A DNA stretch of 64,000 nt from Candidatus Wolfebacteria bacterium GW2011_GWA1_44_24 (GTDB taxonomy: Bacteria; Patescibacteriota; Minisyncoccia; UBA6257; UBA9933): NCBI GenBank assembly GCA_001001115.1, contig LCIO01000001.1, positions 236,710-300,709 on the forward strand. Reading direction: 5' to 3'. The stretch's first letter is position 1, and every line of letters starts with the position of its first letter. The position numbers were made by a program, and so were the translations under genes. The notes under the pieces are model-generated. The model searched no databases, was not told the origin of the DNA, and worked only from the letters and a program-made list of their open reading frames with translations. Below are positions 17,796 to 25,418 of this stretch, one piece after another.

Positions 17796-18350
17796 TTATA
17801 TCAATACTATCTCTTTTTTGGGAATTTTTATAGCGCACTTGGCGCAAAAGAAAATATAGTCTTCCGGAGAGAAAAAATTTATTTCTTTCCCGCGGCAAAA
17901 AACGCAAGCCGCGTGAGCCGGGTCAAAGCCCAAAATTTTGATGATTAACCGATAAATGGCTTTTTCTTTTTTTTGATAAATAAGCCAATTGGCGACAATC
18001 TCTTTCATTGCCAGCCATAATTTGCGGTCCGGCTGAAGATCAAAAGTCATTTCCTTGAAAAATTTGATAAAATTCAAAAGCCTGAAAAAAACCGCTGGAT
18101 TTTCCTTAAAATTGGCCGAATTAGCGATAGTTAAAGCGTCGACTATCTGAAAGCCGTTTTTTTCCACCAGCCGGACTTGAATAAAATTAAGCGGCTCCAG
18201 GTGTCCGTTTAATTTTGAGGTGATTCTTTTGACGCTTTTGGCTTTAGCGGTTATTTTCCCCAAATCCTCGGTGTATAAAATTATTCTCGCGTCCAAATCG
18301 CCGCTGTCTTCCTTGTCCAGTACCAGCGCTTCGGTAAAGTATTCTACCAT
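17796..18350 (-). CDS. recO: DNA repair protein RecO
   Basis: OB-fold N-terminus (MVEYFTEALVLDKE...) and C-terminal zinc motif CVFC...CAKC. Start trimmed from 18422 to ATG 18350. Confidence 0.75.
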   Translation of the reverse strand: MVEYFTEALVLDKEDSGDLDARIILYTEDLGKITAKAKSVKRITSKLNGHLEPLNFIQVRLVEKNGFQIVDALTIANSANFKENPAVFFRLLNFIKFFKEMTFDLQPDRKLWLAMKEIVANWLIYQKKEKAIYRLIIKILGFDPAHAACVFCRGKEINFFSPEDYIFFCAKCAIKIPKKEIVLI

Positions 18351-18459
18351 AACGCGAATTTTAGCAGATCGAAAGAGTGATTTCCATTCCAATTTTACAT
18401 AAGCTTGACAAAATAAAACCACTGGTTATAATTCCTTAAAATCAATCGCGAATTATATA

Positions 18460-18478: not shown

Positions 18479-18616
18479 GATTGGGATTTATAAATAAATT
18501 ATAAAAATTACGAGTGTTGTTTACATTTTCCAGCAGATTGCCTTTCAGAACCAGAATATTTTTGTTCCAGCGACAAAAATTTCTTCCCCCTCGGCGCGCT
18601 GGCTCCGACTATTGAT

Positions 18617-18690
18617 GTAAAGATTTTTGAAACCTAAACGGAAGCGCAGTCCGCCAGCTGGCGGACGTGAGCGGGTTGAAAAAACTTTAC
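18617..18690 (+). ncRNA. Copy A of a conserved 52-nt structured core (18629-18680) with its own outer stem, in the 5' UTR of the 3D-domain gene
   Basis: Core GAAACCTAAACGGAAGCGCAGTCCGCCAGCTGGCGGACGTGAGCGGGTTGAA is 51/52 identical to 24398-24449. Outer stem GTAAAG-a-TTTTT / AAAAA-CTTTAC differs from copy B but still pairs. Confidence 0.55.
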
Positions 18691-18727
18691 ATTTTCCGTT
18701 GCAGAGTAAACAACGCTTGAAAATCTT

Positions 18728-19192
18728 ATGAATAAATACAATAAATATCTGGCGGCTCTCTTGGTTGTGATGAGTTTTAACGTTCTTCAAACCAATGTTT
18801 TCCAGCCAAAAATAGCCGTTATTAACGAAAATTATTCGCTAGACGACTCTTTAACGGCCCAAAATCGGCCTGTTTTGACGCTTGAGAATCAAAAAGTTGC
18901 CAAGCCAAAAATCTTAAAAGTTTGGTTAACCGCTTATTCCAGCACGCCCGAGCAAACCGATGAAACGCCGTTTATCACGGCTTCTGGAAGTTATGTCAGG
19001 AACGGCGTTGTGGCGGCCAATTTCCTGCCAATGGGAGCTAAAATCCGCATTCCAGAAGTTTTCGGCAGCCAAATTTTCGTCGTTGAAGACCGAATGCATC
19101 CCAGATATCAGAACTATATTGATATCTGGTTTCCCGATGCCGAACAAGCCAAAAATTTCGGCAAAAAAATAAGTAAAATAGAAATCCTATAA
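18728..19192 (+). CDS. 3D (MltA/RlpA-like double-psi beta-barrel) domain protein, secreted
   Basis: Signal/TM N-terminus. LTAYSSTPEQTDETPFITASG...VAANFLPMGAKIRIPE...VVEDRM is typical of the 3D domain. Confidence 0.75.
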   Translation: MNKYNKYLAALLVVMSFNVLQTNVFQPKIAVINENYSLDDSLTAQNRPVLTLENQKVAKPKILKVWLTAYSSTPEQTDETPFITASGSYVRNGVVAANFLPMGAKIRIPEVFGSQIFVVEDRMHPRYQNYIDIWFPDAEQAKNFGKKISKIEIL

Positions 19193-21840: not shown

Positions 21841-23941
21841 AATAAACTTCTCTCGGTTTGGCTCCTTCGCCGGGCCCGATAATTCCCTTGGCTTCCATTA
21901 TATCCAGAAGCCGGGCGGCCCGGGCATAACCGATTTTAAGCCGGCGCTGAAGAAGCGAAGCCGACGCCTTTTTCGCGGCTTTAACCGTTTCCACCGCCTC
22001 GTCATACAACTCGTCTTCTTCGCCGGATTCGGCGTATTCGTCAAAAATATTCGATAAATTATCGCTATTAGCTACGCCGTTTTCAAAATTTAAATCCTTT
22101 GGTTCTTCTGTGTCAGCGGAAAAATTTTTATTGTTTTCCCTAATGAAATTGGTTACTTTGCTTATTTCCTCTTCAGAAAGATAAGCCCCCTGGATTCTTT
22201 TCGGCTTTGATAATTCCGATGAAGTAAAGAGCATGTCTCCGCCGCCCAAAAGCTTTTCCGCTCCGGCTGAATCCAAAATAGTCCGGGAATCAACTTGAGA
22301 AGCGACTTGAAGGGCCATTCTGGAAGTGATATTGGCCTTAATCAAACCGGTGATGACTTCAACCGACGGCCGCTGAGTGGAAACAATCAGGTGAATGCCC
22401 GTAGCTCTGGCCATCTGAGCCAATCTGACAATCGCACCCTCGATTTCCCGGCCGTAAGTCGCCATCAAATCAGCCAATTCGTCGATCACCAGTAAAATAT
22501 AAGAAAGCGGTTCATCCGGATGCTTTTTATTATAACTTTGAACGTCGCGCGAACCGGCCCCCAAAAGCGTTTCGTAGCGCTTATCCATTTCTTCAATCAG
22601 CCAGCGAAAAACGCCGGCGGTTTTTTTGGTTTGAGTGATGACCGGCGCGATCAAATGAGGCAGGCCGTCATACGCGGAAAGTTCCACCCTCTTCGGGTCA
22701 ATTAAAATCATTTTCAAAGTTTCGGGCGAATTTTTATAAAGCAAGGAGATTAAAAGGGAATGGATGGCGATTGATTTTCCCGAACCGGTTGAACCGGCAA
22801 TGAGCAAATGCGGCATTTTTTCAATATCCGCGAAAATCGGTTCTCCCGAAACATCGCGGCCCAAAATAAAACCAAGGAGTCCGGAGTCCGCGAATTCCGG
22901 ATAATTCATCAAACTTCCCAGCCGAACTATGGCCGCCACCTTATTCGGCACTTCAATGCCAACCAATGATTTCCCGGGAATCGGCGCTTCAATCCTAATG
23001 GGATGAGCGGCCAAAGCCAAAGACAAATCTTGATTCAAAGCCATGATTCGCGACAATTTAATGCCTTCGGCCGGCTTAAGGGTATAACGGGTAACTTTCG
23101 GGCCGATGTTAATTTCTCCCATTTCCACCGGAATGCCGAATCCCTCCAACGTCCTTTTGATGATATTGGCGCTGGCGCGCAAATCTCCAGAAGTCGGTTT
23201 TTCAATGGACGACTTAAGAAGTTCTAACGGAGGAAAAACATAATTGCCCGACGCCCGGCGTTTAGGAAGAGACATTTTTTTGAATCCTATCGCGGCCGCG
23301 ATTTTTTCCTTAATTGGTTCCTGTTTATCCTCTGTTTTCGGCTCTTCAACTGCCGCAATTTCATTCGTCGGCGCTGGAGCCGGCTCGCTGACTTTCAACG
23401 GCGCCAGAGTCAAAACAGGTTCTTTGTCTTTTTTCATTCTCATTTTGAGAGGTAAATTAAGAGTAACCAGTAAAGAAGCAATATTAATAACGCCGACAAT
23501 AACCAGCGAAGCCATATAACCAAAAAGATATTCCAGGGAACCGATTCCGGCGCCGACAATTCCACTCTTGGAAGGAAGAACAATGTCAATCAGACCCAAG
23601 CCGGCAAAAACGAAAACCACGGCGCCCAGAAAAGTAATCTGATAAATCCGGCGCCGTTCGGAAATCAAAAACACGCCCGCCATAATCAAAAAAGTCAAAG
23701 GTAAGAGATAATATCCCCAGCCGAAAAGCCATTTAAAAATATCGTAAAAAAAATTGCCGACCGGACCGGCGTTTTGAAAACTCGCCAAAAACAAAATCGC
23801 GGCCGCGCCGAAAAAAATCACCGCCCAAACGCTTTTCTTGGTCTCTGGATGAAGCCGAAATTCTTCCGATTCGCCCGACATCAAAGATTTAACGCCGAAT
23901 GCTTTTTTGCTTTTTCTTTTGCGCGACATCTTTTGCTTCAA
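21833..23941 (-). CDS. ftsK: DNA translocase FtsK/SpoIIIE
   Basis: N-terminal TM helices, AGSTGSGKS Walker A, C-terminal winged-helix gamma domain (LQRRLKIGYARAARLLD). Confidence 0.92.
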   Translation of the reverse strand: MKQKMSRKRKSKKAFGVKSLMSGESEEFRLHPETKKSVWAVIFFGAAAILFLASFQNAGPVGNFFYDIFKWLFGWGYYLLPLTFLIMAGVFLISERRRIYQITFLGAVVFVFAGLGLIDIVLPSKSGIVGAGIGSLEYLFGYMASLVIVGVINIASLLVTLNLPLKMRMKKDKEPVLTLAPLKVSEPAPAPTNEIAAVEEPKTEDKQEPIKEKIAAAIGFKKMSLPKRRASGNYVFPPLELLKSSIEKPTSGDLRASANIIKRTLEGFGIPVEMGEINIGPKVTRYTLKPAEGIKLSRIMALNQDLSLALAAHPIRIEAPIPGKSLVGIEVPNKVAAIVRLGSLMNYPEFADSGLLGFILGRDVSGEPIFADIEKMPHLLIAGSTGSGKSIAIHSLLISLLYKNSPETLKMILIDPKRVELSAYDGLPHLIAPVITQTKKTAGVFRWLIEEMDKRYETLLGAGSRDVQSYNKKHPDEPLSYILLVIDELADLMATYGREIEGAIVRLAQMARATGIHLIVSTQRPSVEVITGLIKANITSRMALQVASQVDSRTILDSAGAEKLLGGGDMLFTSSELSKPKRIQGAYLSEEEISKVTNFIRENNKNFSADTEEPKDLNFENGVANSDNLSNIFDEYAESGEEDELYDEAVETVKAAKKASASLLQRRLKIGYARAARLLDIMEAKGIIGPGEGAKPREVYYD

Positions 23942-23959
23942 TTAAACACCAAATTTTGG

Positions 23960-23965
23960 TAAAAT
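23960..23965 (+). promoter_or_regulatory. -10 box TAAAAT (TGg-extended) exactly 7 nt before ATG 23973: leaderless start candidate
   Basis: aaATTTTGGTAAAATtcaatcaATG. Only 31 bp separate this gene from the divergent ftsK start. Confidence 0.45.
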
Positions 23966-23972
23966 TCAATCA

Positions 23973-24374
23973 ATGAAAATGAATCCGAAAATATTTAAAG
24001 CTTACGATATCCGCGGCAAATACCCGCGCGAAATAAACGAAAATATTGTAATGGAAATAGTGGATAAATTTTTACCCCGCAAGTTAAAAATTAAAATTAT
24101 TATCGGCCGCGACGCTCGTTTAAGTTCGCCGAATTTATACAAAGCGGCAATCAAACGATTAAAAATTCAATCCGCCGACTGGCGGAGGAAATTAAAAATT
24201 GTCCCGGCGGGATTGATTACCACACCGATGCTTTCTTTTTTGGTCAATTATCTGAAAGCTGATTTCGGCATAATGATTACCGCCAGCCATAACCCAAAAG
24301 AATACAATGGTTTGAAAATCGTCGGCAAAAACGCCATGCCGATAAGCGGAAAAGATGTTTTACAATTATTATAA
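23973..24374 (+). CDS. Phosphomannomutase/phosphoglucomutase, N-terminal fragment (domain I)
   Basis: KAYDIRGKYP..., active-site loop ITASHNPKEYNGLK. Ends at TAA 24372-24374, in the same frame as the downstream fragment. Confidence 0.8.
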   Translation: MKMNPKIFKAYDIRGKYPREINENIVMEIVDKFLPRKLKIKIIIGRDARLSSPNLYKAAIKRLKIQSADWRRKLKIVPAGLITTPMLSFLVNYLKADFGIMITASHNPKEYNGLKIVGKNAMPISGKDVLQLL

Positions 24375-24472
24375 ACAACAAATACAAAATTGTTTCTGAA
24401 ACCTAAACGGAAGCGCAGTCCGCCAACTGGCGGACGTGAGCGGGTTGAAGAAACAATTTTGTATTCGTTGTT
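24374..24472 (+). ncRNA. Copy B of the structured element: 23-bp stem + 53-nt core region = 99 nt, inserted inside the PMM coding frame
   Basis: AACAACAAATACAAAATTGTTTC (24374-24396) pairs 22/23 with GAAACAATTTTGTATTCGTTGTT (24450-24472). The core contains the perfect hairpin GTCCGCC-aact-GGCGGAC. Confidence 0.6.
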
Positions 24473-24476
24473 GACG

Positions 24477-25418
24477 ATGGCTGTTATGAATTATATAAAA
24501 ATTTACGCTGATTTTCTTAAAAAATTTTTACGACCTCGACAAAAATTGAAGGTGGTTTTTGATTGTTCCAATGGCGTTGCCGGCCCGATAATTAAACAGC
24601 TGACAACCGACAGCCAACAACTGAAAACTTTTTTGATTAATGAAAAATCCGATGGCAATTTTCCGGCTCATGGGCCGAATCCGCTTAAACCCAACGCGTT
24701 AAAACAACTCCAAAATGAAGTCAAAAAACACAAAGCTACTCTCGGAATAATTTTTGACGCCGACGGCGACAGAGTATTTTTCATCGATAATCGCGGCCGC
24801 TTTGTTGACCCGGACGTGATTTCTCGATTGTTAATTTGGCACCTTAAGCCAAAAAAAGTTGTTATCGATGTCCGGACGGGATGGCTCGTAAGAAAATTCA
24901 AAATTAAAAATTCAAAATTAAAAATTCACGAATCAAGCGTTGGGCATTATTTCATAAAAAAATTAATGCGCAAAACTAATGCGGATTTAGGCGTCGAACG
25001 TTCGGGGCATTATTATTTCGGACCAAACATTCATAATCAAAAAAATCTTTATTTTGATTCGGGAATCCTTGCCGCCATTGAAACAATCAATGCGGTTTCA
25101 AAATTGCCGTATTCTTTGGCGGATTTCAGCGATTTATTTCCGCCGCTTTATCGCTCCGGCGAAATCAACATAAAAATCGGCCAGCCGCAAAATATAATAA
25201 AAAAAATTGAAAAAAAATTGAAAAATCAAGCAATAAAAACTTCTCGCCTTGACGGCTTAACGATGGAATTCAATCCTTCGGCAAGCCCGGGAAAAGCCTG
25301 GCGGTTTAATCTGCGGCCGTCAAACACCGAACCGCTGGTCAGATTAAATATTGAAGCAACCGATAAACGATTTCTTGACAATTTTCTTAAAAAGATTTAT
25401 TCTTTAATTAGCAATTAG
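24477..25418 (+). CDS. Phosphomannomutase/phosphoglucomutase, C-terminal fragment (domains II-IV)
   Basis: KLKVVFDCSNGVAG, Mg loop FDADGDR, sugar loop ERSGHYYF, phosphate loop RPSNTEP. First in-frame ATG after the element is 24477 (ORF track starts at TTG 24390 inside the element). Confidence 0.75.
   Translation: MAVMNYIKIYADFLKKFLRPRQKLKVVFDCSNGVAGPIIKQLTTDSQQLKTFLINEKSDGNFPAHGPNPLKPNALKQLQNEVKKHKATLGIIFDADGDRVFFIDNRGRFVDPDVISRLLIWHLKPKKVVIDVRTGWLVRKFKIKNSKLKIHESSVGHYFIKKLMRKTNADLGVERSGHYYFGPNIHNQKNLYFDSGILAAIETINAVSKLPYSLADFSDLFPPLYRSGEINIKIGQPQNIIKKIEKKLKNQAIKTSRLDGLTMEFNPSASPGKAWRFNLRPSNTEPLVRLNIEATDKRFLDNFLKKIYSLISN

Follow-up and report, generated by a model that had tools for sequence, protein, structure and literature searches.

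Enzymes of the alpha-D-phosphohexomutase superfamily are expected to be single polypeptides, whereas the phosphomannomutase (PMM/PGM) homologue found in the stretch of Candidatus Wolfebacteria DNA analysed here (64,000 nucleotides, hereafter 'the window') lies in two open reading frames (ORFs) with a 99-nt hairpin between them. The question raised by this locus is whether ribosomes cross the hairpin to make one enzyme, as a sequence-only reading had suggested, or whether the two pieces are genes in their own right. The explanation favoured here, with a probability of roughly 0.8, is that the enzyme is encoded by two cistrons and that the hairpin is a repeat inserted later at their junction.

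The two genes and the hairpin between them

The features of the locus and of a related hairpin elsewhere in the window are listed below, where R1 is a covariance model of the repeat family.

18606-18701, plus strand: second hairpin copy, core 18629-18681 (R1 71.5 bits, E 3.9e-15)
23973-24374, plus strand: PMM/PGM gene 1, N piece, domain I, 133 aa (Pfam PGM_PMM_I, E 2.6e-28)
24170-24187, plus strand: mini-palindrome ATCCGCCGACTGGCGGAG inside gene 1, stem the same as that of the element's apical hairpin
24374-24472, plus strand: 99-nt hairpin element (fold z = -9.07; R1 98.4 bits, E 5e-22)
24374-24397 / 24449-24472: outer stem of the junction hairpin
24397-24449, plus strand: 53-nt conserved core (TGAAACCTAAACGGAAGCGCAG-hairpin-CGTGAGCGGGTTGAA), 52/53 nt identical to 18629-18681
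24398-24399 / 24447-24448: tandem G.A
24400-24404 / 24442-24446: P2
24405-24412: asymmetric loop AAACGGAA
24413-24418 / 24435-24441: P3 base, GCGCAG / CGTGAGC
24418-24435: apical hairpin
24486-25418, plus strand: PMM/PGM gene 2, C piece, domains II-IV, 310 aa (Pfam PGM_PMM_II/III/IV)

The initial description of two in-frame pieces with intact catalytic motifs and one TAA between them was borne out by both the sequence and Pfam. All four domains score above the Pfam cut-offs, PGM_PMM_I on the N piece and II, III and IV on the C piece. When the catalytic loops of the superfamily are defined as T(A/S)SHNP (phosphoserine), DxDxDR (metal), E/xSGH (sugar) and RxSxTEP (phosphate), all four are present and intact across the two pieces: the catalytic serine loop TASHNP (24279-24296) in gene 1, and DADGDR (24756-24773), ERSGHYYF (24996-25019) and RPSNTEP (25314-25334) in gene 2. 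The N piece aligns to residues 23-137 of the Xanthomonas PGM 5kl0 and the C piece to residues 185-463 of the same chain (residues 186-464 of the top match, 6nn2), and the split falls where domains 1 and 2 meet in PGMs of known structure. The TAA at 24372-24374 is the sole stop between the pieces, and the frame is open from 24375 to 25415; both the main candidate start of gene 2, ATG 24486, and the alternative, ATG 24477, are in frame with 23973. A frame common to both genes is a one-in-three coincidence. The stop and the start are separated by 102-111 nt with a very stable structure between them. Inspection of the sequence revealed no clear Shine-Dalgarno (SD) motif 5' of either ATG, and a promoter scan of 23800-24700 found no promoter-like site.

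The hairpin itself was also confirmed as first described, with 22 of 23 positions paired between arms 24374-24396 and 24450-24472; a repeat finder extends these arms to 30 nt (24374-24403 / 24443-24472) at 90%. The RNA fold of 24360-24485 reaches -53.3 kcal/mol, compared with -24.4 +/- 3.2 for shuffled sequences, none of which was as good (0/200). A chimeric or misassembled insert had been named as one way in which the observation could fail, but the identical junction sequence is carried by independent assemblies (JGI 3300025015, ENA ERZ978281, ERZ28564383 and ERZ909590), and misassembly is therefore rejected. Positions 24443-24566 are missing from the NCBI record and two contigs stop at 24418/24442, breaks of the kind that a repeat is expected to produce. 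The hairpin allele is found in most assemblies of the population, from many samples (16 + 18 contigs).

Separate N and C genes in related lineages

As judged by comparison with relatives, the two-gene split was shown to be conserved and to be older than the hairpin. Among the 120 closest homologues, 100 are C-only proteins (55-66% identity, about 296-354 aa), all of which lack PF02878 and begin with a Met 2-5 residues ahead of (N/D)Y(I/L)K(I/L)Y.FLKK; the N-terminus of gene 2, MNYIKIYADFLKK, matches the beginning of these proteins. The other 20 are full-length relatives that are more distant (43-52% identity). Six related lineages have adjacent N and C genes and no hairpin, with three frame relations and with junctions that are either overlaps of 4-19 nt or spacers of 6 or 28 nt. 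The overlap is 13-19 nt with the C gene in the -1 frame in L032, L035 and L037, and takes the form ATGA in L097, whilst L039 has a 28-nt spacer and a +1 frame. The sixth of these junctions is in L045, a segment of a co-occurring strain that is, after its N-gap, 97.6-99.6% identical to the locus; here the spacer is 6 nt, with SGKEILRIMNKE ending at a stop, TAA TGA ATT ATG across the junction and a C protein that begins MNKKFIKIY. This hairpin-less allele is known from one gapped scaffold.

Alignment of orthologues had been proposed as a check on the 99 nt, and it went against an interrupted single gene: the insert is absent from the orthologue loci (zero R1 matches), which are split nonetheless. 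Orthologous N genes terminate no more than 1-3 residues from the end position of gene 1. Both pieces are under purifying selection (dN/dS of 0.09-0.29 for the N piece and 0.13-0.28 for the C piece), values that do not extend to the time after the insertion, the gene being identical in all hairpin-bearing strains. Sequencing frameshifts are an unlikely source of the split orthologues, as independent assemblies agree, and programmed frameshifting in the overlapping ones is ruled out by the three frame relations and the conserved ATG. Because the split is older than the hairpin and the C genes of relatives have their own ATG, gene 1 is best read as ending natively at the TAA and gene 2 as having its native start at ATG 24486 (or 24477). 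A literature search on split PMM or alpha-D-phosphohexomutase found no report of such a form.

In the proposed explanation, the enzyme would have been split long ago in a Wolfebacteria-like clade at the boundary of domains I and II, giving an N gene for domain I with the catalytic serine and a C gene for domains II-IV. The N gene would simply end at the TAA, an ordinary stop, and the C gene would probably be translated from its own ATG, most likely 24486 and otherwise 24477, with the two polypeptides presumably assembling non-covalently. The 99-nt hairpin would have been inserted later into the short intercistronic junction; it represents a palindromic, non-coding repeat that is dispersed and widespread in Patescibacteria and usually occupies short intergenic spacers in operons. 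With the hairpin folded, the base of the helix would bring stop and start to within 5-14 nt of each other, which would allow the C gene to be initiated, by re-initiation or independently, on the AU-rich, single-stranded RNA just 3' of the stem. A two-polypeptide enzyme with a start after the hairpin had been among the alternatives listed at the outset, and that part is supported; the insert did not create the split, however, which is ancestral, and of the two ATGs 24486 (MNYIKIY...) is the more likely start.

The split genes of reduced genomes such as those of Nanoarchaeum/DPANN (mentioned in PMC6349945) are alike in that a conserved single-chain enzyme is cut at a domain boundary into two polypeptides, with purifying selection on each half; the present case differs in that the halves are adjacent and usually overlap (translational coupling), and that the clade is bacterial (Patescibacteria). 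That Wolfebacteria-like Patescibacteria share, across the clade and under selection, a two-gene form of a sugar-phosphate mutase that is normally one chain matters for annotation, where the halves are now labelled 'hypothetical' or taken as truncated, and for judging the metabolic capacity of reduced genomes.

A dispersed palindromic repeat

The junction hairpin was shown, at the level of sequence, to be a copy of a dispersed repeat with a covarying structure. The second copy in the window is intergenic, with a RecO-like gene (17796-18422, minus strand) on one side and a gene at 18728-19192 (plus strand) on the other, and its outer stem (about 18614-18628 / 18681-18693) is short and unrelated to that of the junction copy. 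The core was found in 25 genome stretches and 48 metagenome stretches, and R1 gave about 90 matches in about 75 distinct contexts, including the 2 in the window; the carriers are Patescibacteria genomes and metagenomes of several lineages. Copies are about 90-110 nt in size and share an architecture of tandem G.A, a 5-bp helix, the AAACGGAA bulge and the GCGCAG/CGUGAGC helix base, enclosed by a covarying outer stem of 20-28 bp and topped by a covarying apical stem whose length varies among copies. In 28 aligned copies from other genomes the core is invariant or nearly so. In the family alignment, 92% of cells are paired, compared with 37-50% in slid controls, and double-sided changes are seen at 29/37 pairs; on the sense strand there are 55 G.U against 24 A.C pairs, plus one invariant U.G pair.

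For the majority of copies the distance to flanking ORFs is ~40-48 nt; both orientations occur (21 antisense and 10 sense relative to the flanking genes, which is not decisive), and the sense frame through the insert is stop-free in 22/53 copies (42%), the only sense frame that is often open. Copies are also found inside genes, namely LigA (3 lineages) and a GT2 glycosyltransferase (5 lineages), where they are in frame and stop-free and so are apparently translated and not skipped. These insertions are almost invariant at the nucleotide level: in the five lineages with the GT2 gene there are ~4 variable columns in about 85 nt of element, whereas the codons on either side have 9-17 in every 30 nt. 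The GT2 copies differ by one indel, +9 nt in L016, whose length is divisible by 3, and an ACGGAAG(A/T)G repeat flanks the insert.

Several observations bear on how the repeat might move. Near-identical recent copies occur within one genome, and perfect 8-bp direct repeats flank six copies (L009, L019, L008, L057, L062 and L092). The copies of H52-bin123_1 carry an additional conserved terminal inverted repeat (TIR), CTTTGAATTACGAAAT, and most TIR-bearing H52 copies are flanked by 7-8-bp direct repeats; the ends of other copies differ from one another. An automated scan for target duplications gave a score barely higher overall than in shuffles (6.86 vs 6.42 of 8), the scan being noisy owing to self-palindromic words in the arms. 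The window copies have no clear TIR or target-site duplication (TSD); at the junction there is only a loose AATTAT...ATAA repeat (24364-24374 / 24488-24498), which is not a convincing duplication. No transposase partner or autonomous element was seen among 97 genes flanking copies, nor at loci with only the left half of the core, where a gene might separate the two halves; what turned up there was one truncated copy (L055), one (L061) whose apical loop contains a further hairpin element, and matches due to chance. Neighbour-gene enrichment near copies yielded housekeeping genes only, and no GTAG/CGTC tag or RAYT partner was seen near copies. No copy of the repeat was found in phage and plasmid collections or viral contigs, four viral 18-mer matches being coding sequences for KPKRKR-type peptides without a hairpin. 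Rfam 15 at the gathering threshold returned tRNAs only for the whole window, and at E <= 10 nothing meaningful for the two window copies or for a second hairpin family. This second, unrelated hairpin repeat family is also present in Patescibacteria. Nothing relevant was found in the literature on the core sequence or on MITEs or palindromic repeats in CPR.

The verdict reached is that an ordinary split-gene junction here carries a new MITE/RPE-like element. Rickettsia palindromic elements (RPE), reportedly described by Ogata et al. in 2000, are said to be dispersed palindromes of ~100-150 nt that lie between genes and also in frame within genes, adding a peptide segment. The present repeat is likewise palindromic, with intergenic copies and in-frame insertions in genes (here LigA and GT2), and it too belongs to a host-dependent bacterium with a reduced genome. 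The likeness is one of behaviour only, since the sequences are unrelated; here, furthermore, the centre is invariant, the stems covary, several Patescibacteria lineages are involved, 8-bp target duplications accompany some copies, and TIRs mark one subfamily. In a classical MITE it is the ends, not the centre, that are expected to be most conserved. MITEs, REPINs (PMC3116915; REP superfamilies, PMC3733652) and ERIC-type repeats are, like the present family, short, non-coding, multi-copy hairpins, mostly intergenic and in either orientation; near-identical recent copies, 7-8-bp flanking direct repeats and compensatory changes that preserve the hairpin are further features seen here. MITEs and REPINs differ in having conserved recognition sequences at their ends or arms, whereas the asymmetric internal-loop centre is most conserved here. 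The family colonises both operon spacers and protein-coding genes of Patescibacteria, breaks assemblies and is under a sequence constraint far above expectation for junk.

Alternative explanations for the junction and the repeat

Programmed bypassing would have ribosomes take off from TTA 24369-24371 at the TAA, slide over 99 nt and land at TTG 24468-24473 to give one fused enzyme of ~440 aa. The model is gene 60 of T4, for which the requirements were taken as matched codons, a stop or hungry codon in a 5' stem-loop, a gap of ~50 nt, an internal SD, AU-rich flanks and a KKYK-type nascent signal. The likeness to gene 60 and to the byp elements of Magnusiomyces lies in a mobile insert that separates two coding segments and in an RNA hairpin with a stop codon at its 5' edge (bioRxiv 10.1101/2022.08.31.505936; PMC11194080); indeed, TAA 24372-74 sits directly after the take-off codon at the base of a very stable stem, with Leu codons at both feet and both pieces in one frame. 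The supposedly matched codons are, however, not identical (TTA and TTG), no GGAGG-like internal SD was seen by inspection of 24375-24470, the N piece ends ...GKDVLQLL (GKNAMPISGKDVLQLL) with no KKYK-like signal ahead of the stop, and there is no homing-endonuclease context. No tRNA-Leu(UAA), the proposed reader of both codons, lies within the 64-kb window. The gap in gene 60 is 50 nt (bioRxiv 10.1101/2022.08.31.505936; PMC11194080), and sliding processivity is reported to drop sharply beyond ~56 nt (PMC11194080), well short of the 99 nt here. Where relatives lack the insert, the pieces are two ORFs in other frames and not one continuous ORF, each C gene having its own conserved ATG; the hairpin-less allele of the same population even has two stops between the pieces. 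Mitochondrial byps are untranslatable (stops or frameshifts) within essential genes, unlike the open, in-frame copies in LigA and GT2; in any case, 42% of copies have an open through-frame. As relatives have separate N and C genes, a fused product is not required. Bypassing is thus considered highly improbable, and a false lead is removed: the locus is no bacterial housekeeping case of gene-60-like bypassing.

Processing of the RNA, either by cutting of the stem (e.g. by RNase III), which would uncouple the cistrons, or by excision of the hairpin with ligation of the ends into a continuous mRNA, is also very unlikely. The 24-bp near-perfect helix with its paired core in an mRNA presumed to be co-transcribed, and the excess of G.U over A.C on the sense strand, are compatible with a folded RNA substrate. 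Rejoining is unneeded, though, as the enzyme is two-gene in relatives, and open frames through the LigA and GT2 copies would be unnecessary were the element removed from mRNA. That no Rfam ribozyme or intron family was detected at E <= 10 also speaks against processing; simple cleavage without ligation would still be compatible with these findings. It is likewise unlikely that the insertion is a recent, polar and inactivating one, with coupling or initiation of the C gene blocked and PMM activity effectively lost in the strain. The wider and highly structured stop-to-start distance (relatives overlap or have <=28 nt), the lack of an obvious SD or of a promoter-like site in 23800-24700 and the identity of hairpin-bearing strains, which makes intact motifs weak proof of function, are in its favour. 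Against it, the hairpin allele dominates assemblies of the population, stop and start would be 5-14 nt apart once the hairpin is folded, and the same element lies in many operon spacers and even within LigA without decay of the genes. An inactivating insertion had been entertained from the outset, and of that idea the insertion, here of a repeat, is supported; because its site is intercistronic, no gene need be inactivated.

A broader, tentative possibility concerns the repeat itself, which could be a module with a function as structured RNA or single-stranded DNA, now spread through the genome; small RNAs, ribozymes and protein-binding sites are examples. The invariant core across distant Patescibacteria, the covariation of both stems, the strand-specific G.U excess with its invariant U.G pair, the near-invariance of the GT2 insert and an apical stem of variable length, as in many RNA motifs, would fit such a module. 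The occurrence of both orientations and of copies inside ORFs argues against it, as do target duplications and near-identical recent copies, which are typical of mobile repeats, and the failure of the promoter scan, the 97 flanking genes and Rfam to supply a promoter, partner gene or known motif. It is similarly conceivable, if doubtful, that the repeat represents an undescribed, Patescibacteria-specific class of structured nucleic acid whose core is selected at the nucleotide level in essential genes, even in antisense. Were this true, such selection would entail a partner that acts in trans and recognises a single folded strand, be it RNA or single-stranded DNA; a processing enzyme, a ribozyme activity or a new mobilisation machinery would be candidates. 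In that case the hairpin at the PMM junction might in addition be a structured coupler of the gene 1 stop and the gene 2 start.

A minor observation concerns gene 1, where the mini-palindrome at 24170-24187 coincides with 4 extra residues (QSADWRRK) that are missing from orthologues. Sites of the form CCGCCNNNNGGCGG occur 3 times in the 64 kb, compared with 0.11 expected, and the mini-palindrome may be a remnant of the element or a conversion tract.

The two-gene mutase and its junction

The apparent interruption of the phosphomannomutase (PMM/PGM) gene is, with a probability of roughly 0.8, the intercistronic junction of a two-gene enzyme in which a repeat copy has landed. The sequence-only reading had described two pieces with a complete motif set, one frame and one stop, and this is borne out by ORFs, motif positions and Pfam domains; ATG 24477 and ATG 24486 are in frame with 23973, TAA 24372-24374 is the sole intervening stop, and in the hairpin arms 22 of 23 positions are paired, with an extension to 30 nt at 90%.

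Features of the junction (plus strand of the window)
23973-24374, +: N piece, 133 aa, ends ...GKDVLQLL*; TASHNP at 24279-24296; Pfam PGM_PMM_I, E 2.6e-28
24374-24472: hairpin element, 99 nt; core at 24397-24449
24486 or 24477 to 25418: C piece; DADGDR, ERSGHYYF and RPSNTEP all present; Pfam PGM_PMM_II, III and IV

The hairpin starts exactly at the last base of the TAA, and the RNA fold of 24360-24485 reaches -53.3 kcal/mol (shuffles: -24.4 +/- 3.2; z = -9.07). The source population is groundwater Candidatus Wolfebacteria (GW2011_GWA1_44_24, GWB1_41_12, GWA2_42_10). A chimera or misassembly, which had been named as a possible undoing of the locus, is ruled out because independent JGI and ENA assemblies carry the hairpin-bearing sequence at 100% identity. 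Two further contigs end inside the element, at 24418 and 24442, and GenBank LCCF01000004.1 (fetched locus L001, 10470/10471) lacks window positions 24443-24566, a gap of 124 nt that begins inside the element and leads to the frameshifted 261-aa C-piece annotation KKS25267.1; such breaks and gaps are assembler behaviour at repeats. Within the N gene, a GC-rich mini-palindrome (ATCCGCCGACTGGCGGAG, 24170-24187) shares its stem with the apical hairpin of the element, coincides with four residues that orthologues do not have and has a terminator-like score on the minus strand; three such sites occur in 64 kb, against 0.11 expected.

When both pieces were joined as a query, the closest 100 of the 120 homologues listed (55-66% identity, ~296-354 aa) were found to be without domain I, and all begin with a Met 2-5 residues ahead of (N/D)Y(I/L)K(I/L)Y.FLKK; the 20 full-length proteins are farther off (43-52%). 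In five fetched loci the N gene lies directly upstream of the C gene and the hairpin is absent.

Junctions in five fetched relatives (own handles)
L032: 13-nt overlap, C in -1 frame
L035 and L037: 19-nt overlap, C in -1 frame
L097: ATGA overlap
L039: 28-nt spacer, +1 frame

These are not sequencing frameshifts, because independent assemblies agree for each lineage. The N genes stop within a few residues of one shared position, which identifies TAA 24372-24374 as the native stop; the comparison with orthologues that had been called for found the stop position conserved and the hairpin missing. Between lineages, amino acid identity is 52-71% for the N piece (dN/dS 0.09-0.29) and 55-64% for the C piece (dN/dS 0.13-0.28), and both are under purifying selection, with similar rates of evolution. 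Aligned with Xanthomonas phosphoglucomutase 5kl0, the N piece corresponds to residues 23-137 and the C piece to ~185-463, which places the cut at the domain 1/2 junction, where ~30 residues of the usual chain are absent. In being cut at a domain boundary, the mutase is like split genes known from other reduced genomes; a literature search found no report of a split form of this enzyme. In a more distant lineage (L096, 1051-2415) a C piece (domains II-IV) has variant loops FDSSNG and RFSQTEP, and its upstream neighbour is a response-regulator receiver gene, where the domain I gene would be; this lineage has either lost the N piece or encodes it at another place. Once compared with relatives the locus is ordinary; the modest novelty that emerged alongside lies in the repeat family and in the splitting of the enzyme across the clade.

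Translation across the junction

The headline idea of the sequence-only reading was a ribosomal hop over the hairpin, as in T4 gene 60, which would yield a single fused enzyme. Of the features that define that system only one is found here, a stop codon at the hairpin base. The codons do not match, there is no ~50-nt gap containing an internal Shine-Dalgarno motif, a nascent-peptide signal is lacking and relatives do not have one continuous gene; sliding processivity is reported to drop sharply beyond 56 nt (PMC11194080). The conserved ATG and the three frame relations of the relatives' separate genes argue against frameshifting or bypassing and for two polypeptides with translational coupling, so that the bypass is unsupported and most improbable. 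The shared frame is a one-in-three coincidence, and as the through-frame has no stop in 22 of 53 copies, the lack of further stops is unremarkable. The two-polypeptide alternative of the same reading is supported with corrections: the split is older than the hairpin and was not caused by it, and the C gene probably starts at ATG 24486, which gives the N-terminus most often seen in homologues (MNYIKIYADFLKK), although ATG 24477 could serve as well. The two codons are 5-14 nt past the stem, in AU-rich sequence. A closed hairpin would bring stop and start about as near as in relatives, and the C gene would be initiated either by re-initiation after termination or independently; no promoter-like site or strong Shine-Dalgarno motif was seen near the junction. 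Less probably, the insertion is recent and harms C-gene expression; all hairpin-bearing strains are identical over the gene, so that their intact motifs say little about selection since the insertion.

A co-occurring strain (L045, ENA ERZ28564304 scaffold_9284; 97.6-99.6% identical to the window) carries on a single scaffold the hairpin allele 5' of an N-gap and, 3' of it, a hairpin-less junction reading ...SGKEILRIMNKE* TAA TGA ATT ATG MNKKFIKIY; the scaffold here (1777-1860) joins two alternative alleles of one population. In the hairpin-less allele two copies of a 13-nt direct repeat (GAATTATGAATAA) are separated by 8 nt, two stops lie in frame, and a 21-nt deletion would yield a continuous ORF; an insertion or excision in the past may have left this pattern.

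The repeat family

The 53-nt core recurs with one difference at 18629-18681, between divergent genes, where the stem is entirely different and shorter. A core-derived pattern found 25 stretches in species-representative genomes, all of them Patescibacteria MAGs (Wolfebacteria-labelled, Saccharibacteria-labelled or unclassified; more than a dozen copies in H52-bin123_1 alone), and 48 metagenome stretches matched a 19-mer of core sequence. R1, a covariance model built from element copies, scored the two window copies at 98.4 and 71.5 bits and gave ~90 matches in fetched loci, with no copy in the PMM loci of relatives. No Rfam family matches the element, the phage, plasmid and viral contigs searched are free of it, and no paper that gives the core sequence or reports repeats of this kind from these bacteria was found.

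Parts of the element, in all copies
Outer stem: 20-28 bp, AT-rich, loose consensus only
Tandem G.A / G.A
Helix AACCU/GGGUU: 5 bp, invariant U.G pair
Bulge AAACGGAA: 8 nt, purine-rich, 5' strand only
Helix base GCGCAG / CGUGAGC
Apical hairpin: variable in sequence and length

Across 28 aligned copies 92% of cells are paired, a share that falls to 37-50% when partners are slid by 1-3 columns, and 29 of 37 pairs have changes on both sides; the observed pairing and covariation values were reached by none of 500 shuffles. Variable pairs are more often G.U (55) than A.C (24), which indicates that one particular strand folds, as RNA or single-stranded DNA.

Most of the ~75 distinct contexts are short spacers between co-directional genes (median distance to flanking ORFs 40-48 nt; 21 copies antisense, 10 sense), and the flanking genes are ordinary housekeeping ones, among which transposase, integrase and reverse transcriptase are not enriched. 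In H52-bin123_1 the copies are near-identical (94-99% over ~150-180 nt) and flanked by 7-8-bp AT-rich direct repeats, and those at L009, L010, L017, L021, L023, L026, L028 and L030 have an extra, conserved outer inverted repeat (CTTTGAATTACGAAAT); perfect 8-bp flanking repeats occur at several other copies too. It follows that the element, or some of its subfamilies, probably moves as DNA and duplicates its target. Together with a TIR-only mini-palindrome without core (L017, 2694-2749), the extra TIR and the duplications indicate that the core hairpin may sit inside a classical MITE or have been captured by one.

By analogy the element is filed as a dispersed palindromic repeat of a previously unreported variety. 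Closest in behaviour are Rickettsia palindromic elements, which insert in frame in proteins of a reduced genome, and MITE/REPIN/ERIC-type repeats, which are likewise dispersed and hairpin-forming with compensatory changes; apparent target duplications at some copies fit the latter. Unlike either class, the element conserves its asymmetric centre and not its ends and spans distant Patescibacteria, and no partner gene was found. Less likely, though a real possibility, is a function of the element as a structured RNA or as a module of single-stranded DNA.

Copies inside genes and a second hairpin family

A sense copy lies eight residues before the KxDG lysine of the NAD-dependent DNA ligase LigA in three lineages (L011, L079, L094), and an antisense copy lies in a family-2 glycosyltransferase (GT2) gene in five (L016, L064, L060, L050, L065). 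All are stop-free, and the indel among GT2 copies (+9 nt, L016) is a multiple of three. The GT2 flanking codons have 9-17 variable columns per 30 nt, against about four in the ~85 nt of element outside the apical loop, and it is the antisense strand, not the mRNA, that has the G.U pairs. Such constraint at the nucleotide level is the most surprising of the results. Both in-gene copies are far more conserved in nucleotides than the codons around them, encode near-palindromic peptides (e.g. EEISFSLNPLTP..GLRFRLGFGEKEISS) and have flanking direct repeats, ACGGAAG(A/T)G at GT2 and GCGAGC at LigA.

A second, unrelated hairpin family (ACCGG.GTTCGC-stem-CTCCAGCGG-stem ... CTCGGC ... GACCAAGC ... CCTCCG), without an Rfam match, was seen in fetched loci.

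Second-family positions
L041: ~1880-2060
L043: ~1900-2080
L042: ~1370-1600
L035: ~1000-1120
L061: ~120-300

Its sites include the interior of an aminotransferase gene and the apical loop of a core-family hairpin, in which it is nested. In full-length PMM of Harrisonbacteria-like relatives it is the translated low-complexity domain I/II linker, the site at which the Wolfebacteria-like clade is split. The linker thus looks like a hotspot for such elements, which offers a hint as to the origin of the split.
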